Source of the DNA: Anaerolineae bacterium
GTDB taxonomy: Bacteria > Chloroflexota > Anaerolineae > B4-G1 > SLSP01
Assembly: GCA_035347995.1 (NCBI GenBank)
Contig: DAOPQD010000005.1
Span: forward strand, 6,433-70,432
Length of the DNA stretch: 64,000 bases
Direction of reading: 5' to 3'
Positions 1 to 26,348 of this stretch are shown here, piece by piece (the stretch's first letter is position 1; the number at the start of each line of letters is the position of its first letter). The position numbers and the translations under genes are program-made. The notes beneath the pieces were generated by a model that did no database searches, was not told the origin of the DNA, and was given only the letters and a program-made list of their open reading frames with translations.

Positions 1-281
1 AACCCGTGGCCCACCAGGGGAAGCCGCGGCAACCCCATCTGCTGCATGAATAGCGCCACCTGGGCCACGTAACTGTCAATGGAATAACGGGTGCGATTCT
101 TGTCCGAGTCCCCAAAGCCCCAGAAATCGAGCGCGTAGGCGCGATACGACGAGGACAACGCGACCATCGTCGGCACCCAGTAACGCCAGGAACCGAGCCA
201 GCCGTGCAGGAAAAGCAGCGGTTTTCCGCGGCCCAAAGCCTCGTAGTGGGCAAGGCTGCTTTCCAGAATGACGGCACTCAT
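1..281 (-). CDS. alpha/beta-fold hydrolase, N-terminal part only (gene runs off the left edge)
   Basis: Own translation of the minus strand from the ATG at 281-279 gives MSAVILESSLAHYEALGRGKPLLFLHGWLGSWRYWVPTM..YALDFWGFGDS..LVGHG. Clear paralogue of the 9133..9918 product. Absent from the ORF track because it is truncated. Confidence 0.8.
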   Translation of the reverse strand, partial: MSAVILESSLAHYEALGRGKPLLFLHGWLGSWRYWVPTMVALSSSYRAYALDFWGFGDSDKNRTRYSIDSYVAQVALFMQQMGLPRLPLVGHG

Positions 282-300
282 CCGTTCACGCTCCGCAAGT

Positions 301-678
301 TCAGGCTTTCCCGTACTGCTGCAGAATCTGCTTCACTTGTTTGATCAGCTCATCAGGCGCAAAGGGCTTGAGAATATACTGCGCCGCCCCGACGCTGAGC
401 CCTTCTTGAATTTCGCTTTCCTGGCCCTTGGCCGAAAGGAACACCACCGGCGTAGATTGCATCTCCGGTATCTGCATCAACGCGGCGCAGGCCTGATAGC
501 CGGTCATGCGCGGCATCCGCACGTCCATCAAGATGAGATCCGGCCTGACCTGCGGCGCCCTTTCCACCGCCTCGGCCCCGTTAGCCGCCAGTTCCACCTC
601 GAAACCGGCAAAGCGGAGGGTGAAGGCAATCAGCTCGCGAATATCACGTTCATCTTCGGCTACGAGGATCTTGACCAT
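301..678 (-). CDS. single-domain response regulator (CheY-like receiver)
   Basis: 125 aa. Motifs KILVAEDERDIRE, DLILMDVRMPRMTG, SAKG, ILKPF. Lies 3 nt downstream of the kinase stop. Confidence 0.9.
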   Translation of the reverse strand: MVKILVAEDERDIRELIAFTLRFAGFEVELAANGAEAVERAPQVRPDLILMDVRMPRMTGYQACAALMQIPEMQSTPVVFLSAKGQESEIQEGLSVGAAQYILKPFAPDELIKQVKQILQQYGKA

Positions 679-681
679 CCA

Positions 682-3600
682 TCACTCCTTGTTCCCGTCA
701 GCACTTTCTACCAGGCGGGAAATCTCCTCTCCCAACTCCTCCATCGAGAAAGGCTTCGTGACAAAACGTGTTGCCCCCAGCGCTTTCATCGCCGATGCGC
801 TCCCATTCCCCGGTTCGGCAAAACCCGTCATCACCACGACGGGGATGTTGGCCGTAGCGGGATGGCGCTTCAATTGTTGGAGCACCTCATAGCCATCCAT
901 GCCCGGCAACTTCAAATCCAGCAAAATCAGGGAGGGTGGCTGCTCCTGAGCCATCCGCAACGCCCGCTCACCGCGGGTCACCGTCCGCACCTGCAAGCCC
1001 TGCGCCCGCAAGGCCGTCCGCAGCAAAGTCAGGGTGTCCCGATCGTCATCTACTACCAGGACCGTGCCTTTGCCGGCCAATACCCGATTCACGACCTGCA
1101 ACAACCGGGCTTCATCCACCGGCTTGGTGAAATAATCCACCGCTCCCAATCGCAGCCCGCGATCCTGATCAAAAACCACTGAGACAATCACCACCGGGAT
1201 GGACGCCGTGTCGGGGTTGCGTTTGAGGAGCTGCAACACCTCAAAACCGTCCAGATCGGGGAGGCGGATATCCAGCGAGATCAAATCCGGCTGTTCCTGA
1301 CGCGCCAGGCGCAACGCCGCTTCCCCCGAGGCGGCCACCACAACCCGATGCCCCTCGTGTTCCAGCGTCAGCCGCAACATTTCGGCGACTTCGGGATCAT
1401 CCTCGACGACAAGAACGGTGGCCGCGGCATTCGCCCCCAATCCGGCAGGCGGACGCCCCACCGGCGCCGTCGCTTCCCCTTCCGCCAGCGGGAACGTCAC
1501 GGTGAAAATACTGCCCTCTCCCGGCTCACTTTCCACAGAAATTTGACCGCCGTGCATCTGCACCAGCGAGGCCGTGATCGCCAACCCCAGACCCGTGCCG
1601 CCCGCCTCCGACACCAGCGGGTTATCCACACGATAGAAGCGTGAGAAAATCCGGCTTTGATCCTCTGGCGAGATGCCAATGCCCGTATCGGCTACGGCGA
1701 TATGGAACATCTCCTCCCGGACATAAGCATAGATGGCGATCTCGCCGCCCAGCGGCGTGTATTTGAAGGCGTTTCCCACCAAGTTGGTGAGAATTTGCAC
1801 CATCCGATCGGGATCCCCGTAAGCCAACGGCAGGCCCTCCGGCAGAACGGTGCGGATCTGCAGCCCCTTCTCTTCAATCTTGGGCGTGAGTGTGACCGCC
1901 ACCTGCCGGATCAGCTCCGCCATGTCTACCGGCTGACAATGAAGCTCCACCTTGCCGCCCTCAATACGCGACATATCCAGCAAATCGTTCACCAGGCTCG
2001 TCAACCGATCGGTGTTGTTGCGAATGATGTTCAGGAATTGCACCTGCATGTCGGTGAGCGGGCCGGTAGCCCCCATCAACAGCAGATCCACATATCCCTT
2101 CACCGAGGTCATCGGCGTGCGCAACTCATGCGAAACCGTGGAGACAAACTCGCTCTTGGCGCGGTCGGCCTCCACCTCCGCCGTGATGTCGCGGAAGGCC
2201 GCCACGACCCCCAGGAACTCGCGGATCGGCGAGATGACCGGCGATAAATGCATACTCACGACTTGCCGCCCCAGTTCCAACCGTTCCGAGAGGAAATCAC
2301 CGCTCTGGTAGCTGCCCGGTTCCGCCTCCCACACCGCGATCTGCTCCAGCCAGCCGCGCACTTTGTCGCCGTAGAGCCCCAATACCTCACTCAGCGAACG
2401 TCCCATCGCCTGCGCGCGATTCAGCGTGAGGATGCGCTCCGCCGCCGCATTGAAGAGGATGATCTTGCCGCGAGCGTCTGCCACCAGCACGCCGTCGGCG
2501 ATGCCTTCGAGAATGGCCTGACTGCGAGCGGCTTCGTTCTGCTGGGTGCGCAGCATCGAGCCTACCCGCTCCGCCTGCTCGCGGATCAAACGATACAGCT
2601 CCGCGTTGTTGAGTGCATGACCGACCTGCACCGCGGCGGCTTCCACCAGCCGCTGATCCCCAGTGTCAAAGGCGTCCACCTCGGGCGAATGCAGAAAGAT
2701 CACGCCGACGGTTTCATCGCCGGCCGTGATCGGTACCGCAAGCACCGAGCGCGTGTCGTCCTCGATGGGAATCCAGCGCGCATCGAGACGCACGTCGGGC
2801 ACCATCGCCGATTGCCGGTTCGTGAGCACCCACCCCACCAGGCCCTCGTTGCGCTTGTAAGGCGCTCGCACACCCCCTGGCGGGACAGATTTGCCGCCCC
2901 CGACTGAGGCCCGTTGCTGCAAATGGCCCGTGTTCTGATCCAGCAGCAACACGGTCGCCCGCTCGGCGCGCACCGCGTCTTTGAGCATCGAGACCGTCTT
3001 GTGCAGCACCCGATCAATGTCGAGGCTGGCCACCAGGCCGGAGGCAATTTCGTACAGGATCGTCGAGCGGTCACGCTCAGTGCGCAGGCTATTCAGAGCT
3101 TCGGCCAGCTCCGCCGTGCGCTCTTCCACTCGCCGTTCCAGCTCCGCCGAGAAGTTCTTGACCTCCTCGAAGAGCTGCGCATTTTCCACCGCCACCGAGA
3201 TCTGGTCGGCGAGCATCGTCAACGTCGCCACCTGCAGCGGCTCGAGGATCCCGGCCTCGCGGCGTTCCGCGCTGAGCACTCCCACCGTGCGCCCGGCGAC
3301 CTGCAACGGCACAAGCAACGCCGACCCCACCGGCAACGGCCCCGGCGTGAAGCGCGGCTCGCCGCGCACGTCATCCAACGCCAACGGCATGCCGGATTCC
3401 ACGACGGCGCCCACCAGTCCTGCCCCCGGTTCCACCTGCAGCCCCTCGCCCAACAAACTCAGATCATACCCCGAGGACGCGCGCGGCGTCAGCGCCGTCT
3501 GACCCCGAGCTTGCAGGTACACCGTCGCATAATCATAGCCCAACAAATTGGTGACCGCTTGCGCCACCGTGTTGAGGACCAGCGAGAGGTCGAGTTTGGT

Positions 3601-5055
3601 CGTGATCGAGCGGCTCAGTTCGTTGAGCAACATCAGGGTGTTCAGCTGCAGCCGCAGGTTTTCCACCAGCCGGTTGTTGGCGATGACCACCCCAATCTGC
3701 GCCGCGAACAGCTCCAGGACTTCCAGGGAGGCCCGCGTCGGCGCCCGTCCGTCCAGAGGCTCGTCCACCGACAGATAGCCGACGGCATCGCCCTGCGGGC
3801 CATACAGCGGGACCAGCAACAGGTCCTGCGGATGCCACATGCCGGGGCGGCGAGCCTCAGGCAGGGCCACCTCCACCTCAAACACGTCCAGTTCCCCACG
3901 CCAGATGTGTTGCTGTTCAGCCGGAATGTAATAGCAGTTGCCGATGCGGAATTGCTCTTGCAGCAAGCGTGCGATCTGCGACCAGGGGCGGCGCACCTGC
4001 TTGAGGCGCTCCAAATCCACCAGGGGCATCCCTGCCCCGGCGACGCGCCGCACCATCTGCCCCTCAATCACGCTGATGAGCACGATCTCATAGCCGACCG
4101 CTTCTTGTGTGGCATACGCCATGTCCAACAGGGTCTCTTCGAGGGGGCGATCGGAACGCATCGTCCGCGTGGCTTCCAACAACAAGCGCATCTGCTCGGC
4201 GCGTTCCCGCACAAAGTTGCCCCGCAGCAGTTGCTCCTGATAGCGCCGATCGTTTCCCACCGCCAGCGCCGTTTCCGCCGCCAGCCCGTCCATGAAATCA
4301 ATCGCCGCCGGATTCAACGCCTGCGGTTGGCGGCAGTGCAGCACGATGGCCGCTGCCAGCTGCCCCTCATAAAAGACGGGCGACCACAATTCAGTCTGCA
4401 TCCCGGCCTGGTATGCCGGCGTCGGGTGCAGCTCGGCGAGATTGGGAATGTAGCGAGTGACTGGCTGCCGCATGAAAGCCACCAGCGAAGGGTCGGTCTC
4501 AGCATGGGCCAGTAGCTCCTCGTAAGCGGCGGAGGTGGCCTCCGGATAGCCCTGTGCCAGCGCCAGGGTAGGGAGCTCGTCGCGCCAGAGCCAGACCATC
4601 CCCGCATCCGCGTGAGTGAACCGCCGCGCTTCTTCCAGCACCAATTGGAGAATCCGCCCCAGTTCCAGCGTGCTGGCGATCTCCTGGGTGATGCGCCGCA
4701 AGGCGGCTTCCGAGGCAACGCGCCGCGCGACTTCCTGCTCCGCCGCCTGGGCGCGCCGGGCCTGCGCTTGCCATGCCGACGCCAGCGTAGCCCCGGCACC
4801 CGCTAAAAAGGCCGCCACGGCCCAATGCAACCACAGCGTCGGCGTGCGCCACACGGCCAACACCGCCAGCGCGAATAAAATGAGGGCCGTCAGCCAGACA
4901 CGCCGTCGCCCCTGCAGGCCCCCCAACACCGCCGGCAGGATCAACAGGTACAGCCCCACGGGCAGCGCGCCGCTATACAGCAGCAGCAACGCCAGCGCGC
5001 TGCTCAGCAACACCGCGCCCCATCCAGGCTGGAAAGAAGTCAACCGCTCACGCAT
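682..5055 (-). CDS. hybrid sensor histidine kinase (TM, multiple GAF, PAS, HisKA, HATPase_c, two receiver domains)
   Basis: 1457 aa. Hydrophobic N-terminus and repeated GAF-like blocks. H-box SHELRTPMTSV; N/G boxes NLVGNAFKYT, DTGIGI, GGTGLGL. Two C-terminal receivers (VLVVEDDPEV.., VLVVDDDRDT..). Confidence 0.9.
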   Translation of the reverse strand: MRERLTSFQPGWGAVLLSSALALLLLYSGALPVGLYLLILPAVLGGLQGRRRVWLTALILFALAVLAVWRTPTLWLHWAVAAFLAGAGATLASAWQAQARRAQAAEQEVARRVASEAALRRITQEIASTLELGRILQLVLEEARRFTHADAGMVWLWRDELPTLALAQGYPEATSAAYEELLAHAETDPSLVAFMRQPVTRYIPNLAELHPTPAYQAGMQTELWSPVFYEGQLAAAIVLHCRQPQALNPAAIDFMDGLAAETALAVGNDRRYQEQLLRGNFVRERAEQMRLLLEATRTMRSDRPLEETLLDMAYATQEAVGYEIVLISVIEGQMVRRVAGAGMPLVDLERLKQVRRPWSQIARLLQEQFRIGNCYYIPAEQQHIWRGELDVFEVEVALPEARRPGMWHPQDLLLVPLYGPQGDAVGYLSVDEPLDGRAPTRASLEVLELFAAQIGVVIANNRLVENLRLQLNTLMLLNELSRSITTKLDLSLVLNTVAQAVTNLLGYDYATVYLQARGQTALTPRASSGYDLSLLGEGLQVEPGAGLVGAVVESGMPLALDDVRGEPRFTPGPLPVGSALLVPLQVAGRTVGVLSAERREAGILEPLQVATLTMLADQISVAVENAQLFEEVKNFSAELERRVEERTAELAEALNSLRTERDRSTILYEIASGLVASLDIDRVLHKTVSMLKDAVRAERATVLLLDQNTGHLQQRASVGGGKSVPPGGVRAPYKRNEGLVGWVLTNRQSAMVPDVRLDARWIPIEDDTRSVLAVPITAGDETVGVIFLHSPEVDAFDTGDQRLVEAAAVQVGHALNNAELYRLIREQAERVGSMLRTQQNEAARSQAILEGIADGVLVADARGKIILFNAAAERILTLNRAQAMGRSLSEVLGLYGDKVRGWLEQIAVWEAEPGSYQSGDFLSERLELGRQVVSMHLSPVISPIREFLGVVAAFRDITAEVEADRAKSEFVSTVSHELRTPMTSVKGYVDLLLMGATGPLTDMQVQFLNIIRNNTDRLTSLVNDLLDMSRIEGGKVELHCQPVDMAELIRQVAVTLTPKIEEKGLQIRTVLPEGLPLAYGDPDRMVQILTNLVGNAFKYTPLGGEIAIYAYVREEMFHIAVADTGIGISPEDQSRIFSRFYRVDNPLVSEAGGTGLGLAITASLVQMHGGQISVESEPGEGSIFTVTFPLAEGEATAPVGRPPAGLGANAAATVLVVEDDPEVAEMLRLTLEHEGHRVVVAASGEAALRLARQEQPDLISLDIRLPDLDGFEVLQLLKRNPDTASIPVVIVSVVFDQDRGLRLGAVDYFTKPVDEARLLQVVNRVLAGKGTVLVVDDDRDTLTLLRTALRAQGLQVRTVTRGERALRMAQEQPPSLILLDLKLPGMDGYEVLQQLKRHPATANIPVVVMTGFAEPGNGSASAMKALGATRFVTKPFSMEELGEEISRLVESADGNKE

Positions 5056-5123
5056 CTTTTCCCATCAACCCCAAACAATTTTTACGTCCCAATAGGAAAA
5101 TATTGCAAAAAAAGTCCACGGAC

Positions 5124-6017
5124 TTAAGATTTCCGCGCCCGTCGGCGCGCCTCGGCTGCCGCCTCCGTCACCTCACGAATGTCAGTGAAAGGGCCCTCGT
5201 CGGCTGAAAGCATGCCGATCTGCAGGTGCATCAAGGGCACATGCTTTTCCTCACCCTTGCTGTCATGCACCACCAGGTATCCCTGCATTCGGGTCATGAA
5301 GTCGTAGTGCGTCCCCACATTCTCCTCGAAGCGCCGTTCGAGGTCCTCTTTGAGCTGCGGCATGATCGCTTTGCGGGTAATGACAATGAAGTTATCGCCT
5401 CCGATATGACCGATGAAATCCTCCGGATAGCCGAGACGCTCCACGGCCTCATTGAGCACCAGCGCCGTGAAGCGCAAGACCTCCTCGCCCGCCACGAAGC
5501 CATACACCTCGTTAAAGGCGTCCAGCCCCGGAATGCCGATGTAGAGGATGCCCCAATCCGCCAGGCGCAGCAGCTGCCGCAATTGTTGCTCGATCAGCCG
5601 GCCGCTCGGCAGGCCGGTCGTCGGGCTCGTCAGACTCTCGATCTCGGCGCGCTTGATGGTGTTCCGCACGCGCAACCGCAGCTCTTCCACGTCGAAGGGC
5701 TTGGTGATGTAGTCATCGGCACCCAACTCCAGGCCGTGGATTTTGTCGCTGCGTTCGTCTTTCTGCGTGAGGAAAAGAATGGGGATATGACTGGTACGCA
5801 GGTTGGTACGCAGCTGCCGGCAGACTTCATACCCGTCAATGTCGGGAAGCATGATGTCCAGGACGATCACATTGGGGAGCAACTGTCGCGTTGCCTCCAG
5901 CGCATCCTGTCCCCGCGGCGCAACATGCACTTCGTACTCCAGGGATCTGAAATACAGCTGTAACATGTTGGAGATGTCGGGATCGTCTTCCACTACCAGA
6001 ATACGGCCTTCACTCAT
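5124..6017 (-). CDS. response regulator with GGDEF-type output domain (signature degenerate: GGDNF)
   Basis: 297 aa. Receiver motifs ILVVEDDPDI, LDIMLPDIDG, ITKPF. The C-terminal cyclase-fold domain has IGGDNFIV where GG(D/E)EF is expected. Confidence 0.85.
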   Translation of the reverse strand: MSEGRILVVEDDPDISNMLQLYFRSLEYEVHVAPRGQDALEATRQLLPNVIVLDIMLPDIDGYEVCRQLRTNLRTSHIPILFLTQKDERSDKIHGLELGADDYITKPFDVEELRLRVRNTIKRAEIESLTSPTTGLPSGRLIEQQLRQLLRLADWGILYIGIPGLDAFNEVYGFVAGEEVLRFTALVLNEAVERLGYPEDFIGHIGGDNFIVITRKAIMPQLKEDLERRFEENVGTHYDFMTRMQGYLVVHDSKGEEKHVPLMHLQIGMLSADEGPFTDIREVTEAAAEARRRARKS

Positions 6018-8470: not shown

Positions 8471-9136
8471 TTACACCCCAGGCGTTCGCCCAATCTGGAA
8501 CGTGCAGGCGGGGTCCCCTAAGGCGATGCACGTCACTTCTGCAACCTCGAAGGGCTTGCCCCCACTTGCCCAATATAGCGTCTCCGCCAGCAATCCTGTC
8601 ATCAGAGAACAGACCGGATAGCTCGCCCGCCAGCCCCAACAAAAGCCGCACTGCTTCATGATCCAGAAGTAGCTCTCCGCCGTCTCCGACAATTGCACCT
8701 GCTGCGCCGCATAACGGTTGAGGATCTCCGCCAGGACCTCCAGGCTCAGGCGCACCCGAAAAGTGAGCGGCAGAATACGGAACATCACGTCGGCGACGCT
8801 CAGCAAGCCGCCAAAATCCTGGACGCCATACCGAAACGCGACACGCCCCGCGCGCAGGCAGAGCTGTTGCCCGCTGTGCGCCCCGTGCAATTCATCTATC
8901 GCCGTGAGCAGCTGCGCCACCGCCGTAAACGACAAGGCCGGCTCGAAGTTGGTCGGCAATGGCCGCTCGCCCAGCTCCGGAAGACGGGCCGCCGTCAACA
9001 CGGCCTTCAGGCTGTTAGCTCCGAGCACTTCCTCCAGCGACAGGAGCAAAATGCGTACGAATTTATTGGGAAAGTACCCCTCCGCGTGCGGGTCGTCACC
9101 CGCGAGCTCCGCCTCAAACCGCTGCGCCATCGTCAC
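8471..9136 (-). CDS. V4R (4-vinyl-reductase-type) domain protein
   Basis: 221 aa. C-terminal pattern CGFCWG..VCSLMTGLLAE..EVTCIALGDPACTFQI is typical of V4R domains. 4-nt overlap with the upstream hydrolase gene. Confidence 0.7.
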   Translation of the reverse strand: MTMAQRFEAELAGDDPHAEGYFPNKFVRILLLSLEEVLGANSLKAVLTAARLPELGERPLPTNFEPALSFTAVAQLLTAIDELHGAHSGQQLCLRAGRVAFRYGVQDFGGLLSVADVMFRILPLTFRVRLSLEVLAEILNRYAAQQVQLSETAESYFWIMKQCGFCWGWRASYPVCSLMTGLLAETLYWASGGKPFEVAEVTCIALGDPACTFQIGRTPGV

Positions 9137-13969: not shown

Positions 13970-15271
13970 GTGGAACACAGTTCCCGTATTGCGGGATTTT
14001 ATAATCTGAGCGGCGCTGAACGTCTGCAGCTGGTTGCCGACTGGGCCGCGCTGAATGCCGAAGAGCAAGCCGTGCTCTCCGGCATTTTGGGCCTGGATGT
14101 GGAACACGGCGCGGCCATGATCGAGAACGTTATCGGGATCTACAGCCTGCCACTCGGCATCGCCGCCAATTTCACGGTGAACGGCCGCGACGTGCTGGTG
14201 CCCATGGTGATCGAGGAGCCGTCGGTCGTCGCGGGGGCCTCGCTGGCTGCCCGACTGGCGCGCGCCGGCGGTGGCTTCAGCGCAAGCACCGCCGAGCCGG
14301 TGATGATCGGACAGCTGCAGGTCATGGGCCTTGACGATCTCGAGGCCGCGCAGGCGCGCCTTCTGGCGGAGAAAGCGGCACTCCTGGCCCTGGCCCATGC
14401 CGTGGACCCTGTCCTCGCGCAGCTGGGCGGCGGCGCGCAAGACCTGGAAGTCCGCCTCCTGCCGGAGACGCCCGCCGGTCCCATGCTCATCGTGCACCTG
14501 CTCTACGACGTGCGCGACGCGATGGGCGCCAATGCTGTCAACACGGCCTGTGAACGCCTCGCGCCGGAAATCGCTCGGCTTACCGGCGGGAGAGTCTTCC
14601 TGCGCATTCTGAGCAACCTGGCGGATCGTCGCCTGGCGCGCGCCGGGGTCGTCATCCCCGAAAGCGCGCTGGCGTTTGATCACTTCAGCGGCGAAACGGT
14701 CGCCCTCGGCATCGAACAGGCCTGGGCCTTCGCTGCCGCCGATCCCTACCGCGCCGCGACGCACAACAAAGGCATCATGAATGGCGTGGATGCGGTCGTG
14801 CTCGCTACGGGGAACGACTGGCGCGCCATCGAAGCGGGGGCCCATGCCTACGCCGCCCGCGAGGGGCGCTACACGAGCCTCAGCACGTGGCAGCGCGATG
14901 GGAAGGGCAACCTCGTCGGCAGCCTGGAGCTGCCCCTGGCGTTGGGCATCGTCGGCGGGGCGACGCGCGTGCATCCGACGGCGCGGGTCGCGCTCAAAAT
15001 CCTGGGGGTGCAGACTGCCCGCGAGCTGGCGGAGATCGTCGCCAGCGTGGGACTGGCGCAGAATCTCGCCGCGCTCCGCGCCCTGGCGACAGAGGGCATC
15101 CAGAAGGGACACATGAGCCTGCACGCCCGGCAGGTCGCCATGGCAGCCGGCGCTACGGGAGAAGCCATCGAGCGCGTCGCCGAGGCCATGATCGCCGAGG
15201 GCGTTATCCGCGTGGATCGCGCCACGGCCTGGTTAGAGCATTTTTACCGCGAGGAGCACGGCGCCGCGTGA
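13970..15271 (+). CDS. mvaA: hydroxymethylglutaryl-CoA reductase, class II
   Basis: 433 aa. MIENVIGIYSLPLGIAANFTVNGRDVLVPMVIEEPSVVAGAS closely matches my recollection of the Pseudomonas mevalonii MvaA block. GTG start. Confidence 0.9.
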   Translation: MEHSSRIAGFYNLSGAERLQLVADWAALNAEEQAVLSGILGLDVEHGAAMIENVIGIYSLPLGIAANFTVNGRDVLVPMVIEEPSVVAGASLAARLARAGGGFSASTAEPVMIGQLQVMGLDDLEAAQARLLAEKAALLALAHAVDPVLAQLGGGAQDLEVRLLPETPAGPMLIVHLLYDVRDAMGANAVNTACERLAPEIARLTGGRVFLRILSNLADRRLARAGVVIPESALAFDHFSGETVALGIEQAWAFAAADPYRAATHNKGIMNGVDAVVLATGNDWRAIEAGAHAYAAREGRYTSLSTWQRDGKGNLVGSLELPLALGIVGGATRVHPTARVALKILGVQTARELAEIVASVGLAQNLAALRALATEGIQKGHMSLHARQVAMAAGATGEAIERVAEAMIAEGVIRVDRATAWLEHFYREEHGAA

Positions 15272-15319: not shown

Positions 15320-16384
15320 GTGGCAGAACGTTGGACCATGCATCCACAACGCCCGGTGGGAATTGTCGGTTATGGCTCGTACGTGCCCATGTACCGCCTG
15401 CCCAATGCGGAAATCAGCCGCATCTGGGGCAGCGGCGATGAGGGGGGGCCCATCAAGGAAAAGGCCGTCGCCGGATTGGATGAGGACACAATCACCATTG
15501 CGATCGAGGCCGCGCGCAACGCTTTGAGTCGCGCCGGCATTGCTCCCGAAGACATCCGCGCGGTCTGGATAGGCAGCGAATCGCATCCCTACGCCGTCAA
15601 ACCGAGTTCGACGGTCGTGGCTGAAGCGCTCGGCACGTCCCCCTATCACCTGGCGGCGGACCTGGAATTCGCCTGCAAGGCCGGCACCGAGGCGCTGCAG
15701 GCGGCCATCGGCCTGGTCGGCTCTGGCATGGCGCGCTACGCCCTGGCCATCGGCGCGGACACGGCGCAAGGGCGGCCCGGCGATGCGCTGGAATACACCG
15801 CTGCTTCCGGCGGGACCGCCTTCATCGTAGGGCCGGCGGAGGAGGCGCTCGCGGTGCTGCGCGGGTCGCTCTCTTTCGTCACCGATACGCCCGACTTCTG
15901 GCGGCGCGCCTATCAACATTATCCCAGCCACGGCGGACGCTTTACCGGCGAACCGGCTTACTTCCACCACATTCAATCCGCTGCTGAGGCGCTGCTGGAG
16001 GAGATGGGATTGGGGCCCCAGGATTTCACCTACGCCATCTTCCATCAGCCCAACGTCAAATTCCCGGAGCGGGTAGGCAAGCGCCTGGGCTTCACCAAAG
16101 AGCAGCTGCAGCCGGGTCTGATCAGCAACCGCATTGGGAACACCTACGCCGGCGCGGCGGTGACGGGCCTCTCGGCGACGCTGGATGTCGCCAAAGCGGG
16201 GGATCGCATCCTCATGGTCAGCTTCGGCTCCGGCGCCGGCTCCGACGCTTTCGTGTGGGACGTCACGGGGGCGCTGGAAGAGCGGCGACATCACGCGCCG
16301 CTGGTACAAGACTATATCGCCCGCCGCGTGGAAATTGACTACGGTCTGTATGTCCGCTATCGCGGCAAACTGCTGGTGAAGTAG
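15320..16384 (+). CDS. HMG-CoA synthase, archaeal-type
   Basis: 354 aa. [14 protein letters not shown], condensing-enzyme core ([17 protein letters not shown]). GGAGG lies 5 nt before the GTG at 15320. Confidence 0.85.
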
Positions 16385-16393
16385 GAGGCACGG

Positions 16394-17551
16394 ATGCGCG
16401 ACGTAGCCATTATCGGCATCGGCCAGACGCCGGTTCAAGAACATTGGCCCATCAGCCTGCGGCATCTGGCGCTGGAAGCGGCGCTGAACGCGCTCCACGA
16501 TGCCAACATCGAAAAAGTGGACGCCATCTATGTCGGCAATATGCTTTCGGGTGAAATCACCGGCCAGGAGCATCTCGGCGCGTTGCTCGCCGACGAGCTG
16601 GGACAGTCGGGCGCTGAGGCTTTGAAGGTAGAAGCGGCGTGCGCTTCGGGCGCGGCGGCGCTGCGCGTGGGGATGATGGCGGTCGCCAGCGGGATGAACG
16701 ATCTGGTGTTGGTGACCGGCGTGGAGAAGATGACGGACACGTCGGGCCGTGAGACGACGGCGGCGCTGGCCATGGCGGCAGACGCGGAATATGAAGTCGC
16801 GCAGGGCGTGTCGTTTGTGAGCCTCAACGCGCTGTTGATGCGCCGCTACATGTACGAATACGGCTGGGAACGTAAGGATTTCGCCAATTTCGTGGTGACG
16901 GCGCACGCCAACGGGATGAAAAATCCCAACGCGATGTTTCACATGAAGGTGACGCCGGAACAATATGCGCATTGCGCCACCATCGCCGATCCGGTGGGCC
17001 TGCTCGACGCTTCGCCGGTCTGCGATGGAGCTGCGGCGGTAGTCCTGGCGCCCGCGGAGTACGCGCGCACCCTCAGCCCGGCGCCGATCCGCATTCGTGG
17101 GTCAGGCATCGCTACAGCGCCGATCGCCGTCCACGACCGCAAGGATCCGCTGGCGCTGGAAGCAGCGCGCCTGTCGGTCAAGCGCGCTTATGAAATGGCG
17201 AAGGTGAAGCCGCAGGACATCAGCTTCTTCGAACTGCACGACGCCTTCACCATCATGTCGGCGCTGAGCCTGGAGGCTGCCGGCTTCGCCGAGCGGGGGC
17301 AGGGCGTGCGGTTGGCGCTCGATGGGGAGATCACGCTGGAGGGGCGGATTCCCATCGCCACCATGGGCGGGCTGAAGTCGCGGGGGCATCCTGTCGGTGC
17401 GACGGGCATGTATCAGGTCGTGGAGGCCGTCCTGCAATTGCGGGGGTTGGCGGGGAAAAATCAGCTGCACCATCCGCGCCTGGGCATGACCCAGAACATC
17501 GGCGGCAGCGGCGCCACCATCATCACGACGATTTTGGAAGCGATGGGGTGA
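16394..17551 (+). CDS. acetyl-CoA acetyltransferase (thiolase), archaeal-type
   Basis: 385 aa. VAIIGIGQTP, active-site region EAACASGAAA, C-terminal GHPVGATG..NIGGSGAT. Confidence 0.9.
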   Translation: MRDVAIIGIGQTPVQEHWPISLRHLALEAALNALHDANIEKVDAIYVGNMLSGEITGQEHLGALLADELGQSGAEALKVEAACASGAAALRVGMMAVASGMNDLVLVTGVEKMTDTSGRETTAALAMAADAEYEVAQGVSFVSLNALLMRRYMYEYGWERKDFANFVVTAHANGMKNPNAMFHMKVTPEQYAHCATIADPVGLLDASPVCDGAAAVVLAPAEYARTLSPAPIRIRGSGIATAPIAVHDRKDPLALEAARLSVKRAYEMAKVKPQDISFFELHDAFTIMSALSLEAAGFAERGQGVRLALDGEITLEGRIPIATMGGLKSRGHPVGATGMYQVVEAVLQLRGLAGKNQLHHPRLGMTQNIGGSGATIITTILEAMG

Positions 17552-17646: not shown

Positions 17647-18057
17647 ATGGAAGGAAAAGTTGCTCACGATTGGCGGTTGAAGGGTCAGCGGTATCGTCTG
17701 GAGGGAGAAGAGTGCCCACATTGCAAGGCCAAGATTTTCCCGCCGCGGGACATCTGCCCGGAATGCAAGCAGCCGGCAAAGGAACCCTATCGCCTGAGCG
17801 GGCGCGGCGAGGTTTACACTTTCAGCACGCTCAACAGCGCGCCTGAGGGCTTCGAGGGGTTTGTTCCCTACACCGTGGCGCTGATTAAGCTGGAGGAAGG
17901 CCCGATGATCACGGCTCAGCTCACCGATGTGGCGCCAGAGGATGTGCGCATCGGGATGCCGGTGGAGATGGTCACCCGCAAGTTGCGCGCGCAAGGCGAC
18001 GAAGGCACGATCATCTACGGCTACAAGTTCCGCCCGGCGGGATGGGGGCACGTCTAG
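17647..18057 (+). CDS. DUF35 OB-fold / zinc-ribbon protein (thiolase-HMGS scaffold type)
   Basis: 136 aa. Zinc ribbon CPHC..CPEC followed by an OB-fold-like region. Good SD (AAAGGAGAG). Confidence 0.85.
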   Translation: MEGKVAHDWRLKGQRYRLEGEECPHCKAKIFPPRDICPECKQPAKEPYRLSGRGEVYTFSTLNSAPEGFEGFVPYTVALIKLEEGPMITAQLTDVAPEDVRIGMPVEMVTRKLRAQGDEGTIIYGYKFRPAGWGHV

Positions 18058-22191: not shown

Positions 22192-22304
22192 AGCCTCCTC
22201 TTCCGAATTCTGCCTTCAAAATAGCAGAAAAGCAAATCCAAAACTACGACAAAAGTCGTGGCGCCCTTGATCTACCCAAACTCCCAACCCCCGTGGGATG
22301 GCCT

Positions 22305-24824
22305 TCAATACCCCACGTAGATCTCCTTCAATAGCTTCGTCGTCGCGCCCTTGGCGCCCGGCTCGCTTTCCCCCACCGGCCCCACGCACGAGGGACAGCC
22401 CTCGGTGCAGGGACAAGTCTGCACGCGCTCCAGCGCCGCCGCAGCGATCTGCTCCCACAGCCCCAGCAGGCGGGGACTCAGGCCCACGCCGCCCGGCGCG
22501 GTGTCGTAGAGGATAATGGAGGGCTGCCCCGATTCCGCATCCCGCGCCTGCACCGAGGCCCCCAGGTCACCGGGATCGCACATGAGGAATACGGGCGCGA
22601 GATTCCGCAGCAGATAGGACAGGCCGCTCAGCGCCGTCCGCGCGCCGCGCGCCCGCTCCACTTTGGCGTGACAGAGCGCACACAACGTCAGCAGGTTTTC
22701 GGGGGCGTGCGCCAATCGCAGCGCCACCGAGGGCGGATACTGCGCGAGAAACGTCCGCAGCGGCGTGAGGTGATGCACCTCCAGCGGCGCTTCGGGGCGG
22801 GCTGGCGCCCCGCACAGGCGGCAGGTGTGGGCGTCGCGGGATAAAATCGTCTCGCGGATTTTGGGCCACTCCGGGCCATAATCCAGCGGCGCGACATGCA
22901 CCCCCTCCTCTGCCAGCAGCTCTACCAGCGTCTCCGCCAGCGTCACCCGGCAGGCCTCCGTCTCGAGCAGCTGCTCCGGCAGATCCATGTCCCCCCAGCC
23001 GAGGGTCTCGTGATTGGCCAGGCTCACCCGCCGGTACGAGGTGGGTTTGCTGTGGACCAACACCTCCTCATCAGTGAGCGTGAGCGCCCCGCGCGGCAGC
23101 GTCTCCCGCAGCGCCAGTCGTTCCACGGAAATCGCCGCTGCCGCGAGGGTATAGTAATCATAGTCGCCGGGCTGCGCCTGCGCCAGCCCGCGCTCCCAAT
23201 CCAGTGCCGTGATGAGATAGGGCGTCCCGCCATGGAAGTAGATCGCCCCCTCATGCACCATGGCCGCGGCGCTTGGACGGTCCATGAGGCCCAGCGTCTC
23301 CCCCGCCGTCGTCTGGATGATCACGTTGTCGGCGGTCGTCGTGCGCAACGAGACGCTCTGCGCAGGATAAGTCTCCCCCACCCAGGTAAAGCGCTCCGCA
23401 CTGCGGTGGAGCACGCCCTCCGCACTGAGTGCTTCGAGCAACGGCGCCACATCCGGCAGCGAGCCGAAAGATTCATCGCGCTCGAAGGGCAGCTCAAAGG
23501 CGGCGCAGGCCAGATGCGAGCCGAGCACCGCCAGCGCGTCGGCGTTCAGACGGGCCTCCTCCGGCGAACGCACGAAGAAATACTCCGGGTGCGTCACCAG
23601 GTATTGATCCAACGGCGCCGGCGTAGCGATCAACACCGACAGCGAGACGCCGGCCCGGCGTCCGGCGCGGCCCATCTGCTGTCGCGTCGCCGCGATGGTG
23701 CCGGGATAGCCCACCAGCACCGACGCATCCAGCGCGCCAATGTCAATGCCGAGCTCCAGGGCGTTGGTGGCGACCACCACCCGGGTGCGGCCCTCGCGCA
23801 GATCCCGCTCGATGGTGCGGCGCTCGTGCGGGAGATAGCCGCCGCGATAGCCCTGGATCACCTCAGCCGGGAAGCCGGCGCGCGCGGCCCGTTCCCGCAG
23901 CTCGCGCAACAGGAGTTCCACCGTCAGCCGCGATCGCGCGAAGACGATAGTCTGCACGCCGGCCTGCAACAGCCGCAGGGTGAGGAACACGGCCTCGGCG
24001 CTGGCGCTGGCGCGCAACCCCAGCTCCGCGTCCAGCAGCGGTGGATTGTAGCACAGCACATGTCGCCCGCCGTAGGGCGCCCCATCGGCCTCCACCGGGG
24101 TGACCGGCGCCTCCCACAGGGATTCGGCCAGCTGCTGTGGATTGGCGATCGTCGCGGAGGCGCCGATGAAGCGCGGCGCCGCGCCGTAGAAGGCCGCCAC
24201 ACGGCGCAGGCGACGCAACACGTTGGCGATGTGGCTGCCAAAGACGCCCCGGTAGGTATGCAGTTCATCGAGCACCACGTAGCGCAAGCCGCTCAGGAAC
24301 CGCAGCCATTGGGTGTGGTGCGGCAGAATGCCCAGGTGCAGCATGTCGGGGTTGGAGACGAGAATGCGCGCCTCCTTGCGGATGGCGGCCCGGCGGCTCT
24401 GCGGGGTGTCGCCGTCGTAGGGGCGCAGGGCGAGCGGTGCCTGCAGCTGGCCGATCCAGGCTTCCAGCGCCGCGATCTGATCGTGGGCCAGCGCCTTGGT
24501 GGGGAAGAGCAGCAGCGCGGTGGCGGTGGGATCGCGCAGCAGCGTGTGGAGCAGCGGCAGCGTGTAGCCCAACGTCTTGCCGGAAGCCGTCCCCGTGGCG
24601 AGCACCACATTTTCCCCGCGCAGGACCGCTTCCACGGCGCAGGCCTGATGGGTGTAAAGCGCAGGAATGCCCAGCGCGCGCCCGGCGGCGCTGAGCCGCG
24701 GATCCAGCTCGGCGGGCCAGGTGACGGTCTGCGCCGCCTGCGCCGGTAACGTGCGCCATGCTGTCACATTGCGGATGAAGCGCGGGTCCTCACGCAGTAC
24801 GGAGAGCAGGGATTCCAGAGCCAT
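22305..24824 (-). CDS. DExH-box helicase of the MrfA/YprA (DUF1998) type with an internal HNH-nuclease-like insert
   Basis: 839 aa. Walker A TGTASGKT, VLDELHTY, helicase C motifs (GYRGGY, TNALELGIDIG, QQMGRAGRR). HNH-like CRLCG..EVHHL..NLLTLCALCH at nt 22668-22823. C-terminal Cys cluster CPCTEGCPSC. Confidence 0.9.
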   Translation of the reverse strand: MALESLLSVLREDPRFIRNVTAWRTLPAQAAQTVTWPAELDPRLSAAGRALGIPALYTHQACAVEAVLRGENVVLATGTASGKTLGYTLPLLHTLLRDPTATALLLFPTKALAHDQIAALEAWIGQLQAPLALRPYDGDTPQSRRAAIRKEARILVSNPDMLHLGILPHHTQWLRFLSGLRYVVLDELHTYRGVFGSHIANVLRRLRRVAAFYGAAPRFIGASATIANPQQLAESLWEAPVTPVEADGAPYGGRHVLCYNPPLLDAELGLRASASAEAVFLTLRLLQAGVQTIVFARSRLTVELLLRELRERAARAGFPAEVIQGYRGGYLPHERRTIERDLREGRTRVVVATNALELGIDIGALDASVLVGYPGTIAATRQQMGRAGRRAGVSLSVLIATPAPLDQYLVTHPEYFFVRSPEEARLNADALAVLGSHLACAAFELPFERDESFGSLPDVAPLLEALSAEGVLHRSAERFTWVGETYPAQSVSLRTTTADNVIIQTTAGETLGLMDRPSAAAMVHEGAIYFHGGTPYLITALDWERGLAQAQPGDYDYYTLAAAAISVERLALRETLPRGALTLTDEEVLVHSKPTSYRRVSLANHETLGWGDMDLPEQLLETEACRVTLAETLVELLAEEGVHVAPLDYGPEWPKIRETILSRDAHTCRLCGAPARPEAPLEVHHLTPLRTFLAQYPPSVALRLAHAPENLLTLCALCHAKVERARGARTALSGLSYLLRNLAPVFLMCDPGDLGASVQARDAESGQPSIILYDTAPGGVGLSPRLLGLWEQIAAAALERVQTCPCTEGCPSCVGPVGESEPGAKGATTKLLKEIYVGY

Positions 24825-24938
24825 GCGCCTATTGTAGCGTAGTCAATGCAGTTGACCAGGACAACAAATTCAGTAAAATCAGGGACGTGGCAACGCCTCC
24901 CTTGTTGCCCCCATCTTATCACTGGAGGTTTTGTGAAC

Positions 24939-26348
24939 ATGCAGGCCGCACTCGTAGAGGAACATGTCCCTTTGAAGAGTCGCATTGCCATCTCAGCGGG
25001 AGATGCAGCAACCGGCATCCTCCAATCGCTGGCGGCGTCCGGGGCGCTGACGTATTACTTCGTCAGCCTGCGTGGGCTGGACCCCAAACTGGCGGGGACC
25101 GTCTGGTTGCTGTTTGGCATCTGGAATGCGGTTAATGACCCACTCTTCGGTTACATCAGTGACCGCACCAAAAGTGCCCTGGGGCGGCGCATCCCCTACA
25201 TCCGCTATGGCGCTCCCCTCTTCGTGTTGGGATTTATCCTCTTCTGGGTCGTGCTCCCCGGCATCGGCAACAGCCAGACCGCCCTCTTCATCCAGCTGCT
25301 GATAGGACTGTTCATCTATGACGTCCTCTACACCGCCATCGCGACCAGTTTCTGGGTCATGCCCTACGAGGTGGCCGTTTCCAACAAAGCGCGGGGCACC
25401 ATCTACATCTGGAAAATCATCTTCATGGTATTCACGCTCGTCGTGCCGTTTGCCGTAGAGGCCACGATTAAGCCAGAGGTAGGCGATGAAGCCGGCATTT
25501 TGCTCTTCCGCTGGGTGATGATCGGATTGGGTGTGGTAATGGGGCTGATCATTTTCTTCAGCACGTTCTTCTTCAAAGAAAAACAGTACATCCAGGAAGA
25601 GGAGCAATTCAATTTCGTCACGTCCTTCAAAGAATGCTTCACCAACCGCTCCTTCGTCGTTTTTGAGGTCTTGAGCTTCACCGTGATGTTCACGCAAACG
25701 GCGCTGATGACGGGTGTCTGGTATTACTTCGACATGCTGAACATGCCTCGCGCCCCCATGCTCGGCGCCCTGGCAGCCGGCATCGTGTTGGGCATCGTCG
25801 CCTGGATTCAGCTGCGGGATCGCTGGGGCATCAAACGCTGCACGCAGGCCTTCACCCTCCTGTTTGCGGTCGGCTGTGTTCTGGTGATGCTCTTCGGGCG
25901 CAATGTGATCCTGGGAACGGCGGGCTTCTTCCTCTTTGGGATCGGGTTCTCCGGCGGGATGTATTTGATTCCACTCATGAACGGCGACGTCGTGGATATG
26001 GACGAACACCGCACGGGGCTCCGCCGCGAAGGGATGTATGCAGGCATCAACAGCTTCATCACCAAACCGGCGATCAGTCTCGCGGCATGGGCATTGCTGA
26101 ACATCATGAAGGCTTACGGCTACAACGAAAATCTCCCTGCCGCAGCGCAGTCTTACTCCGCCGGGACCGGCGTGTTGATCGGTTGGGCTGGCCCAACAGC
26201 GCTGTTGTTGATCCTGTCATTCCTCTCGTTGTTCATGTACCCGCTGGCGGGCGCGGAATGGGAGCAGATCAAACTCAATCTGGCCAAAGCTCACGCCGAG
26301 AAGGAACGTGCGTACCTGGAAACGCACGGCTATAAGTTTGTCAAATAA
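24939..26348 (+). CDS. MFS / GPH-family (glycoside-pentoside-hexuronide type) transporter
   Basis: About 12 hydrophobic segments. DPLFGYISDRT..GRRIPY is the GPH-type loop motif. ATG at 24939 has GGAGG about 10 nt upstream; the track ORF starts earlier at 24846. Confidence 0.8.
   Translation: MQAALVEEHVPLKSRIAISAGDAATGILQSLAASGALTYYFVSLRGLDPKLAGTVWLLFGIWNAVNDPLFGYISDRTKSALGRRIPYIRYGAPLFVLGFILFWVVLPGIGNSQTALFIQLLIGLFIYDVLYTAIATSFWVMPYEVAVSNKARGTIYIWKIIFMVFTLVVPFAVEATIKPEVGDEAGILLFRWVMIGLGVVMGLIIFFSTFFFKEKQYIQEEEQFNFVTSFKECFTNRSFVVFEVLSFTVMFTQTALMTGVWYYFDMLNMPRAPMLGALAAGIVLGIVAWIQLRDRWGIKRCTQAFTLLFAVGCVLVMLFGRNVILGTAGFFLFGIGFSGGMYLIPLMNGDVVDMDEHRTGLRREGMYAGINSFITKPAISLAAWALLNIMKAYGYNENLPAAAQSYSAGTGVLIGWAGPTALLLILSFLSLFMYPLAGAEWEQIKLNLAKAHAEKERAYLETHGYKFVK

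Follow-up and report, generated by a model that had tools for sequence, protein, structure and literature searches.

Does the gene at positions 22305..24824 of the window (the whole stretch of DNA that was analysed, 64 kb) encode a DNA-repair helicase with a nuclease built into it, and what would such a protein do in the cell? The earlier note on this sequence described a helicase of the MrfA/YprA type with an HNH motif, took it for a self-contained helicase-nuclease variant, and left its role between repair and defence.

Domain layout of the helicase and its HNH insert

The open reading frame on the reverse strand is complete, comprising 839 aa and a stop codon, and its product is a DExH helicase of the MrfA/YprA type into which an HNH domain is inserted. 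The protein sequence is identical to NCBI HOC20201.1 / HQM13556.1, annotated as 'DEAD/DEAH box helicase [Anaerolineae bacterium]'. MrfA, a DExH DNA helicase of SF2 with 3'-to-5' polarity, carries the accessory domains WH-OB-CON-MZB. A phmmer comparison aligned the window protein to B. subtilis MrfA/YprA (6znp) with an E-value of 7e-202 in two collinear blocks, residues 8-628 corresponding to MrfA 9-631 and residues 731-818 to MrfA 647-734. Relative to B. subtilis MrfA this leaves a net gain of approximately 87 aa at the CON/MZB junction. The full-length AF2 model (pLDDT 85.8) had 6znp_A as its best Foldseek match (E 9e-81; target-normalised TM 0.82; 40% identity by structure alignment) and displayed long beta strands at aa 500-629, covering OB and CON. 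DEAD (E 6e-31), Helicase_C (E 3e-15), WHD_HRQ1, HNH, and MZB were found with Pfam, the SF2 DExH core motifs I, II, and VI are all present, and the zinc cysteines of the MZB domain, C804, C806, C810, and C813, do not vary among 60 homologues (Table 1).

Judged by alignment and model, the gene encodes an orthologue, at family level, of MrfA (YprA), a helicase of DNA repair. The 6znp alignment, the Pfam domains, and the top structural match of the model thus bear out the earlier identification as an MrfA/YprA-type helicase, and every one of the motifs on which it was based (TGTASGKT, DELH, QQMGRAGRR, and CPCTEGCPSC) is present in the translated ORF. The actinobacterial equivalog TIGR03817 (helicase/secretion neighbourhood DEAH-box helicase) was considered as well. 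It scored 617.5 bits versus a cut-off of 874.1, with the score split into two stretches flanking the HNH domain; by this profile the window protein is related to the equivalog, and membership was rejected. HNH-bearing MrfA proteins are named "DEAD/DEAH box helicase" in the databases, with one cluster member called "putative ATP-dependent helicase Lhr". The nuclease part is hidden by these names.

Table 1. Positions of protein domains, motifs, and flanking signals of the HNH-bearing mrfA gene in the window.
Feature	Residues	Position (nt)	Strand	Basis or remark
NTR	1-39	24708..24824	-	boundary carried over from B. subtilis MrfA: 6znp alignment, limits from PMC7797055
RecA1	40-250	24075..24707	-	Pfam DEAD 58-230, E 6e-31
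Motif I, TGTASGKT	77-84	24573-24596	-	within RecA1
Motif II, DELH	186-189	24258-24269	-	within RecA1
RecA2	251-423	23556..24074	-	Pfam Helicase_C 286-390
Motif VI, QQMGRAGRR	382-390	23655-23681	-	within RecA2
Winged-helix (WH) domain	424-495	23340..23555	-	Pfam WHD_HRQ1 428-495, E 3.5e-9
OB fold and CON beta-sheet connector	496-560 (OB), 561-628 (CON)	22941..23339	-	collinear with MrfA 491-630
HNH (His-Me finger) endonuclease domain, inserted	645-730	22635..22892	-	
HNH core motif, C668 to H719		22668..22823	-	
MZB / DUF1998 zinc-binding domain	731-820	22365..22634	-	Pfam MZB 735-814, E 2e-21; MrfA 647-734 alignment
Four-Cys cluster C804, C806, C810, C813 (CPCTEGCPSC)	804-813	22386-22415	-	within MZB
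Sigma-70-like promoter match, TGGTCA-16-TACAAT		24831..24858	-	ends 7 nt upstream of ATG; weak evidence
Weak terminator-like hairpin and T-run		22246..22259	-	46 nt past the stop codon

The motif CRLCG-x10-EVHHLTP-x22-NLLTLCALCH, noticed earlier in the translated sequence, was confirmed at aa 668-719, nt 22668-22823 exactly as reported. Its placement between the helicase accessory domains and DUF1998/MZB is upheld. The domain is made up of a helix with W653 and R657, the CxxC formed by C668 and C671, a beta strand carrying H684-H685, a pair of short helices, a further beta strand carrying N710, and a CxxCH (C715, C718, H719) opening an alpha helix. In the HMM annotation that the earlier note had suggested, the insert did not fail, since PF01844 (HNH) scored above its gathering score of 21.4, with 23.7 bits (E 5e-5) on the whole window protein and 30.2 bits (E 5e-7) on the excised HNH segment. 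The same family was matched by 32 out of 32 diverse inserts, and a profile built from these matches solved HNH nucleases (5h0m, 3e-10; IscB, 4e-8; McrA, 1e-5). The isolated HNH model reached a pLDDT of 90.8 and has the beta-beta-alpha-metal fold; its Foldseek matches were nearly all HNH nucleases.

C668, C671, H684, H685, N710, C715, C718, and H719 are invariant across 60 close homologues, and the equivalents of the Cys4 zinc and His/Asn/His positions are invariant across 32 diverse homologues. Among 286 full-length proteins the HH pair is kept in 279 and the CxxCH in 285. A residue other than His occupies the first His position in 7 of the 286, and an altered HNH with VYH and CxxCY was seen in P0198. 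With 63%, conservation of the HNH domain equals that of WH and exceeds that of OB and CON, and the GC and GC3 of the segment match the remainder of the gene. This purifying conservation and the host-like composition indicate that the HNH domain is an integral part of the protein, without signs of recent insertion. The insert is a bona fide, zinc-stabilised HNH module of 86 residues, placed exactly at the CON/MZB junction, and apparently catalytically intact. In the literature searched, a description of an MrfA-type helicase with an HNH insert was not found.

Phyletic spread and association with MrfB

All of the 120 best homologues of the window protein contain the HNH domain, and among representatives clustered at 50% identity 75 of the best 150 have it. 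A second HNH-bearing clade was found in Cloacimonadota, Fidelibacterota, and other bacteria of the FCB group (118 out of 119 homologues), with an overall identity of 38% between the two clades. As the window protein shares 38% identity with the HNH-positive FCB-clade protein and 40% (structure alignment) with B. subtilis MrfA, which lacks HNH, the insertion may have arisen once or repeatedly. The cluster look-up gave Thermoflexus sp. (WP_352428514.1) as a named organism among the divergent representatives. Our GTDB scan used the alignment subset A3 with the pattern NLxTLCP[ATS]CH and samples only part of the family; the CALCH of the window protein itself would not fit this pattern. The scan resulted in 573 "relatives", which are no census and may include free-standing HNH genes, as these can pass the filter and did so in the viral scan. 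For the best 80 of the 573 the MrfA context was verified. These genomes belong almost entirely to Chloroflexota, and in all 80 species loci, as far as the contigs extend, the HNH domain separates the MrfA core from MZB. The helicase-HNH architecture was absent from the viral contigs scanned.

Hence, HNH-bearing MrfA is widespread, common in Chloroflexota, and found in a few other phyla. Since it is the usual form in all Anaerolineae relatives sampled, it can be called "standard" for Anaerolineae, yet it is uncharacterised. The earlier note had called for a survey of the fusion and had reckoned with a standard, already characterised form of the helicase family; the first half of this description applies within Anaerolineae, the second does not.

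A gene for an MrfB-like DEDDh exonuclease was located within 10 kb in 12 out of the 80 verified GTDB loci (best 80 of 573), in 6 of the 12 immediately downstream in the style of the canonical mrfAB operon. The Cloacimonadota-like (FCB) clade showed an mrfAB operon with HNH-bearing mrfA in 2 out of 3 loci. Loci with the MrfB-like gene directly downstream were L067, L071, L079, L080, L082, L083, L145, and L146, and the downstream gene matched PDB 8un9 with an E-value of 6e-36. In the fragment P0143, the OB-CON-HNH-MZB part is fused to an MrfB-like exonuclease in one polypeptide. These operons and this fusion indicate that the HNH domain is an activity probably added to the MrfB exonuclease and in general no substitute for it. 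The self-contained character proposed earlier is therefore no general rule; for the window itself, tblastn found no mrfB-like gene in the 64 kb. No mrfB was found within 10 kb in the seven GTDB loci nearest to the window protein (L005-L011), and 68 out of the 80 loci are mrfB-less within this distance. As a consequence, and as the window also contains none, coupling to MrfB in the window organism is only putative. MrfB/YprB homologues are plentiful in Anaerolineae (6953 matches), and a comparison of NCBI accession series linked none of the homologues searched to the genome of the window.

In the window, the gene is surrounded by genes for a cupin, an ABC transporter, an HD phosphohydrolase, and an MFS transporter. 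Throughout, the neighbours are housekeeping genes that vary by lineage, the sole recurring functional partners being MrfB, Ogt, and Fpg. One subclade carries a divergent HAD-Ogt-...-MrfB-Fpg cluster. Conserved defence partners were not found among the clustered neighbours of the 80 loci. This gene context favours repair over defence. Of these two roles left side by side in the earlier note, repair is backed by the collinearity with MrfA and by the Ogt/Fpg/MrfB subclade; defence lost ground for want of partner genes at these loci and of the architecture in the scanned viral contigs. The promoter match lies back to back with a match on the + strand for the divergent MFS transporter gene (2 found in the consensus scan versus 0.3 expected). 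Terminator-like hairpins were not above chance (2 found versus 1.6 expected). A LexA/Cheo-type box (GAACN4GTTC) was matched once in the window, at 34803, a site remote from the gene and no more than chance would give, and the Rfam and tRNA scans of the window gave no matches. A Septu system is located in the window, 35 kb from the HNH-bearing mrfA gene.

Proposed role and alternative explanations

MrfAB is a recently recognised second route of bacterial excision repair, and its models are silent on the creation of the DNA end (10.1101/426304; PMC11194089). In these models, which contain no named incision enzyme, MrfA recognises and unwinds and MrfB then degrades; MrfB did not degrade covalently closed plasmid and was weak on nicked DNA, and further partners of the pathway were raised as a possibility (10.1101/426304; PMC11194089). 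The junction of CON and MZB in B. subtilis MrfA lies on the rim of a wide DNA-entry funnel, and the displaced strand was proposed to exit close by, between MZB and RecA2 (PMC7797055). We propose, with a probability of roughly 55%, that HNH-bearing MrfA couples strand incision to its helicase and so feeds excision by MrfA/MrfB. The HNH domain would act as a nickase held on the side where the duplex enters the motor, a position of the active site relative to the DNA path that is suggested by the insertion point. One strand would be cut by the HNH domain as the helicase engages or stalls at a lesion or at branched DNA, and MrfA would start unwinding at the end so created. If MrfB is there as well, this 3'-to-5' exonuclease would use that end too and degrade the damaged strand. 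The result would be an excision machine that is independent of UvrABC and brings its own incision step. Nuclease activity, the strand that is cut, a link between cutting and ATP-driven translocation, and the substrate of repair are predictions of this model. Against it stands that B. subtilis MrfAB works without HNH, so that incision may be no inherent part of the pathway.

A more far-reaching version, to which we attach only tentative credence, is that HNH-bearing MrfA, by itself or together with MrfB, carries out the whole of a UvrABC-independent excision repair, in which one polypeptide recognises the lesion, cuts, and unwinds, and in which triple fusions also degrade. If this was true, MrfAB-type repair would generally need a dedicated incision step, including in Bacillus.

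A replacement of MrfB by the HNH domain in this lineage, with a single protein acting as helicase and as sole nuclease of the pathway, appears unlikely. It would agree with the mrfB-less window, with the mrfB-less surroundings of the closest GTDB loci (L005-L011) and of the 68 out of 80 overall, and with a gene that looks monocistronic, its promoter-like and terminator-like sites being weak. However, canonical mrfAB operons with HNH-bearing MrfA occur in several lineages, P0143 is fused to MrfB, thousands of MrfB/YprB homologues were matched in Anaerolineae, and an endonuclease and a 3'-5' exonuclease are functionally non-equivalent. Less probable still is a non-catalytic DNA-binding or zinc-finger module, e.g. 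a sensor of lesions or junctions or a clamp modulating rotation of the MZB 'drum'. Conservation of His/Asn/His could also serve metal-dependent DNA binding without cleavage, binding-only HNH folds exist, and DotN/IcmJ was among the fold matches. Furthermore, MZB makes few DNA contacts, lesion recognition by MrfAB lacks an explanation, and a few members are substituted at the His positions. Such binding-only domains usually lose their catalytic residues, whereas none of the 32 diverse sequences from Chloroflexota and other lineages departs from the general-base His, the Asn, or the metal-binding His, some 98% of the 286 proteins retain the catalytic positions, and the nearest solved relatives are active nucleases.

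We consider it improbable to a high degree that the protein is an anti-phage helicase-nuclease degrading invading DNA, comparable to the effectors that the YprA family contributes to DISARM, Druantia, and ARMADA. The YprA family has repeatedly been recruited to defence, its members often carrying fused nucleases (PMC12458937), the PADLOC models BrxHI, SngC, and DruE match the helicase core, and the window contains the Septu system. The PADLOC matches, however, are limited to the generic core (aa 48-397), and the protein is collinear with MrfA of the repair branch, with HNH as the only extra region and no room for a BrxA-like insert or a C-terminal nuclease. The lineage-specific housekeeping neighbours, whose recurring partners are only MrfB, Ogt, and Fpg, the failure to find the architecture in viral contigs, and a gene GC typical of the genome, unlike that of the Septu island, also speak against defence. 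A defence effector was rejected as none of the conserved operon partners (methyltransferase, PLD nuclease, DruH, ArmB-D), no BrxA-like insert, and no C-terminal nuclease were found. Hardly credible at all is a selfish in-frame insertion, that is a homing endonuclease or intein-like element without host function. HNH domains are commonly mobile, and among free-standing proteins phage HNH endonucleases come closest to the insert. Yet no Hint/intein family was detected with Pfam at E <= 1, and the domain occupies the same site between homologous flanks in all lineages examined, fixed in every sampled relative. It also equals the host domains in conservation, is identical in composition to the host gene, and keeps all catalytic and zinc residues despite the deep divergence (38% identity) of the clades. 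An intein or homing insertion was rejected on account of the lacking Hint family, the fixed site, and the host-like composition.

The helicase-coupled incision preferred here would make a large natural clade of MrfA proteins, with an intact endonuclease predicted at the DNA-entry side and often paired with or fused to MrfB, a testable candidate for the incision step. HNH-bearing MrfA may thereby supply the cutting step of the MrfAB repair pathway, and these proteins constitute a ready set for biochemistry.

Comparison with known systems

The window protein shares with B. subtilis MrfA (6znp/6znq/6zns) the domain order NTR-RecA1-RecA2-WH-OB-CON-MZB, the DExH motifs, and the four-Cys zinc site, and the mrfA-mrfB operon is kept among its relatives. 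In contrast, CON and MZB are connected by 15 residues in B. subtilis MrfA, where the window protein has about 87 extra residues as HNH; the window gene has no adjoining mrfB, and its host is an uncultured Anaerolineae bacterium of anaerobic digesters. MrfA has a role in the repair of mitomycin C adducts; to our knowledge, there is no link to mitomycin for this organism. MrfB (YprB) is the nuclease partner of MrfA helicases, encoded downstream or fused in relatives of the window protein. It differs from the HNH domain in being a DnaQ-fold 3'-5' exonuclease that needs a DNA end, whereas HNH is an endonuclease domain of unrelated fold inside MrfA. Since the two co-occur, they are not alternatives. 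Fusions of MrfA and MrfB have been documented (10.1101/426304; PMC12458937).

Defence helicases of the YprA-like type (ARMADA with Vsr, Druantia III with PLD, TALON with an RNase H-like nuclease) likewise join OB-CON-DUF1998 to a nuclease within a single chain (PMC12458937). In them the nuclease sits at the C-terminus and has a PD-(D/E)xK, PLD, or RNase H fold, whereas the window protein ends 21 aa past the MZB alignment and only its HNH domain is unaligned to MrfA. Neither the BrxA-like inserts nor the conserved defence operons of these helicases were seen for the window protein. Phage GVE2 HNH and EcoKMcrA (His-Me finger group 1) have the same [CxxC]x2 zinc site and His-Asn-His residues as the insert, and GVE2 HNH is a nicking enzyme (PMC5304195). 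Unlike the HNH domain studied here, they stand alone or are joined to other recognition domains, without helicase coupling, and act in phage DNA packaging or modification-dependent restriction.

Human ZRANB3 (AH2) also unites an SF2 DNA motor and a group-1 His-Me finger domain in one polypeptide. It is an ATP-dependent structure-specific endonuclease that nicks branched DNA to leave a 3'-OH in replication-stress repair (PMC5481773; PMC5714182). Its motor is an annealing translocase of the SNF2 type, whereas the window protein is an unwinding DExH helicase, and its HNH domain is C-terminal, whereas that of the window protein is inserted. ZRANB3 is moreover a eukaryotic protein under regulation by PCNA. 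The likeness is functional, without homology beyond generic folds or family membership. As an analogy, ZRANB3 is the best guide to how the window protein may act, and HNH-bearing MrfA would be a bacterial counterpart to such motor-plus-HNH repair enzymes.

HNH domain within an MrfA/YprA-type helicase

The SF2, Cys-cluster, and HNH motifs that the earlier note had read from the sequence were all recovered at the same positions of the translated minus-strand ORF. HMM annotation likewise found the expected HNH domain, above the Pfam gathering score, as well as MZB/DUF1998.

Features of the MrfA-type protein and of other regions of the window
Feature	Residues (aa)	Window position (nt)	Strand	Remark
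MrfA/YprA-type ORF	839 in total	22305-24824	-	
TGTASGKT	77-84			
DELH	186-189			
QQMGRAGRR	382-390			
CPCTEGCPSC	804-813			
HNH signature CRLCG...EVHHLTP...NLLTLCALCH	668-719	22668-22823	-	
DEAD	58-230			Pfam
Helicase_C	286-390			Pfam
WHD_HRQ1	428-495			Pfam
HNH	668-722			Pfam, 23.7 bits (gathering score 21.4)
MZB/DUF1998	735-814			Pfam
HMG-CoA reductase		13970-15271		
Synthase-like protein		15320-16384		ACP_syn_III_C domain
Thiolase-like protein		16394-17551		
ChsH2/DUF35-type protein		17647-18057		OB + zinc ribbon
PtuA/PtuB genes		59669-61830	+	Overlapping

Among solved structures, B. subtilis MrfA/YprA (6znp) was by far the top match (E 7e-202). The alignment consists of two collinear blocks, query residues 8-628 corresponding to MrfA 9-631 and 731-818 to MrfA 647-734. 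Together with the published MrfA domain limits (CON 557-630, MZB 631-749; Roske et al., PMC7797055), this places about 87 additional residues exactly at the CON/MZB junction. A full-length AlphaFold2 model, with 60 homologues as input, reached a pLDDT of 85.8 and a pTM of 0.81, and its top Foldseek match was DNA-bound MrfA (E 9e-81, target-normalised TM 0.82, 40% identity). NCBIfam TIGR03817 scored 617 bits, short of the 874 it requires, with the match split into two pieces flanking the insert. Matches to PADLOC defence models were confined to the generic helicase core. The NCBI entries (HOC20201.1 / HQM13556.1) carry no more specific name than "DEAD/DEAH box helicase [Anaerolineae bacterium]"; "putative ATP-dependent helicase Lhr" is the label of one cluster member.

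The excised insert scored 30.2 bits against PF01844, which was also matched by all 32 diverse inserts from other lineages. A sequence profile of these 32 inserts retrieved HNH nucleases of solved structure, namely GVE2 HNH (3e-10), IscB (4e-8), and EcoKMcrA (1e-5). Modelled in isolation, residues 643-733 reached a pLDDT of 90.8 and showed the strand(HH)-strand(N)-helix(CxxCH) order that was expected, the two strands being separated by a pair of short helices. Since the full-length model gave the same secondary structure, the two predictions suggest that the insert folds independently, as the lobe considered earlier. Both CxxC pairs, H684-H685, N710, and H719 were invariant in 60 close homologues, as were their equivalents in the 32 diverse ones; among 286 full-length proteins, HH was found in 279 and CxxCH in 285. 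Profiles and models thus confirm a real HNH domain with an intact residue set. In a rare member, P0198 (855 aa), HVYH replaces VHH and CxxCY replaces CxxCH; this protein may be an inactivated copy.

An HNH module is not known to be part of the described MrfA or SftH proteins, and full-text searches on MrfA, DUF1998, and YprA with HNH indeed found no description of one inside MrfA/YprA. For the defence branches, the 2025 YprA-family survey (PMC12458937) lists C-terminal nucleases of the Vsr, PLD, and RNase H types, and it also reports that MrfB can be associated or fused; neither this survey nor the helicase fusions in the His-Me finger classification include this insertion. Since precomputed Pfam annotations already show the combination, it has gone unremarked but is not hidden.

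Distribution of HNH-bearing MrfA proteins

The motif was present in all 120 best homologues (56-97% identity), which derive from MAGs of Anaerolineae and other Chloroflexota. Residues 629-839 were also compared exhaustively, using HMMER, with 1.84 billion representatives at 50% identity; 3494 matches had E <= 1e-3, of which 497 reached <= 1e-10 and 61 reached <= 1e-30. The full motif occurred in 75 of the best 150 matches, many of the 75 being fragments.

The survey of the fusion's frequency suggested earlier was extended to GTDB, scanning one genome per species with the pattern NLxTLCP[ATS]CH. Since this filter can also let through free-standing HNH genes, the 573 "relatives" obtained do not represent a count of the architecture. 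In all of the best 80 loci, which were retained, the HNH domain lies between MrfA helicase core and MZB as far as the contig extends. Nearly all belong to the Chloroflexota (Anaerolineae/Anaerolineales, Ardenticatenales, Thermoflexales, Promineifilaceae). The others are single MAGs labelled Zixiibacteriota (L058) and Trueperaceae (L083) and one "uncultured bacterium" (L067, unclassified, 472 kb contig); horizontal transfer or binning errors could account for these three. In L083 and L067, mrfB also lies downstream of the HNH-bearing mrfA.

A second, divergent clade is collinear with the window protein including the HNH domain, which was found in 118 of its 119 homologues; those members that carry a name are assigned to Cloacimonadota, Fidelibacterota, "FCB group", and Anaerolineaceae. 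Identity of the window protein to the HNH-positive protein of this clade (38%) does not exceed that to B. subtilis MrfA, which lacks the HNH (40%, structure alignment). Hence, either a single origin of the insertion with later losses or its spread between lineages may apply.

Gene neighbourhood and MrfB

Genes around mrfA in the window code for a cupin, an ABC-2 transporter pair, and an HD phosphohydrolase; an MFS transporter gene next to it is oriented divergently. Upstream of mrfA (24825-24940), a minus-strand promoter match has its -10-like hexamer ending 7 nt before the ATG, pointing to a transcript with no leader or hardly any. On the MFS side, GGAGG followed by GTG/ATG occurs at about 24926-24941; the listed MFS start (24846) is probably too early. 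Elsewhere in the window, the four genes from HMG-CoA reductase to the DUF35-type protein resemble an archaeal-type thiolase/HMG-CoA synthase/DUF35 mevalonate module. The lowest-GC stretch (GC 0.486) holds a Septu anti-phage system, with a full-length PADLOC match to PtuA (469 aa, E 6e-90) and a match to PtuB (251 aa, E 6e-45). It was probably acquired horizontally and, 35 kb apart, is unrelated to the MrfA gene.

By tblastn, no MrfB-like sequence was detected in the whole 64 kb window. Of the 80 GTDB loci, 12 contain, at a distance of up to 10 kb, an MrfB-like gene; its product matches the solved MrfB exonuclease (8un9, E 6e-36) and shows DEDDh motifs as well as a TPR tail. In six it lies directly downstream on the same strand, the canonical mrfAB order (L067, L071, L079, L080, L082, L083), and in six divergently upstream (L020, L022, L023, L031-L033), as also in the separately fetched L004. 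Of three loci from the Cloacimonadota-like clade, two have mrfB after the HNH-bearing mrfA, with overlapping stop and start codons in one. In the Cloacimonadota locus L146, a 128-aa DUF559 gene (Vsr-like endonuclease fold family; 8621-9007, plus strand) lies between the two and possibly encodes a third nuclease of the operon. In P0143, a 775-aa, N-terminally truncated metagenomic fragment, OB-CON-HNH-MZB runs on into an MrfB-like DEDDh exonuclease with TPR repeats; the full-length polypeptide presumably also contains the helicase part.

Clustering of all ORFs from the 80 loci revealed neither a universal partner gene nor a recurring defence-type partner. In one Anaerolineae subclade (L004, at 888-5902 on the minus strand, L015, L018, L020, L022, L023, L031-L033, L041), the HNH-bearing mrfA divergently adjoins genes for a HAD hydrolase and Ogt (O6-alkylguanine transferase), mostly together with MrfB-like genes and in L004 additionally with Fpg. 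This set looks like a small DNA-repair gene cluster.

Possible function of the HNH domain

The earlier note had proposed a self-contained helicase-nuclease variant. That the HNH domain replaces MrfB is possible for this organism, given the window without MrfB-like sequence, but not as a rule: because of the mrfAB operons, the P0143 fusion, and the abundance of MrfB/YprB homologues in Anaerolineae, it is in general an addition to the MrfA-MrfB pair and no replacement of MrfB. Of the alternatives "repair or defence", repair is favoured by collinearity with the repair protein MrfA and by the HAD-Ogt-MrfB-Fpg subclade. A defence effector is further argued against by the variable, housekeeping neighbourhood and the missing recurrent defence partner; in IMG/VR viral contigs, the same pattern retrieved only free-standing HNH genes (27-43% identity), none with MrfA core or MZB.

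A domain that merely binds is argued against by the invariant catalytic residues. Against a selfish insertion stand the fixed insertion site, GC and GC3 values equal to those of the remaining gene, and conservation, the mean identity to the window protein being 63% for HNH, as for the winged helix, 53% for OB, and 49% for CON. Pfam detected no intein-type families in the protein. By these sequence criteria, the HNH is an integral domain under purifying selection, neither a recent nor a selfish insertion.

MrfA is a 3'-5' helicase with a funnel for ssDNA entry that is at least 24 A wide, fits duplex DNA, and is built by RecA2, OB, CON, and MZB; exit of the displaced strand between MZB and RecA2 was proposed, and MZB rotates by about 63 degrees over the cycle (PMC7797055). 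Tethered at the CON/MZB junction, the HNH domain would sit on the funnel rim ahead of the motor, a position from which one strand of the entering duplex could be nicked. Such a nick would supply the end that unwinding requires; in the presence of MrfB, the exonuclease would need the same end to remove the damaged strand. MrfB, a 3'-5' exonuclease, is efficient on linear DNA and acts only slightly on nicked plasmid; on closed circles the paper makes no comment (10.1101/426304). Published MrfAB models name no incision enzyme and leave room for unknown partners; through HNH-bearing MrfA, the question of who makes the incision becomes directly testable. In function, the best analogue is ZRANB3, where the HNH of an SF2 motor protein nicks DNA in an ATP-dependent and structure-specific manner, leaving a 3'-OH (PMC5481773; PMC5714182). 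For the inserted domain itself, the closest relative of solved structure, GVE2 HNH, acts by nicking DNA (PMC5304195).
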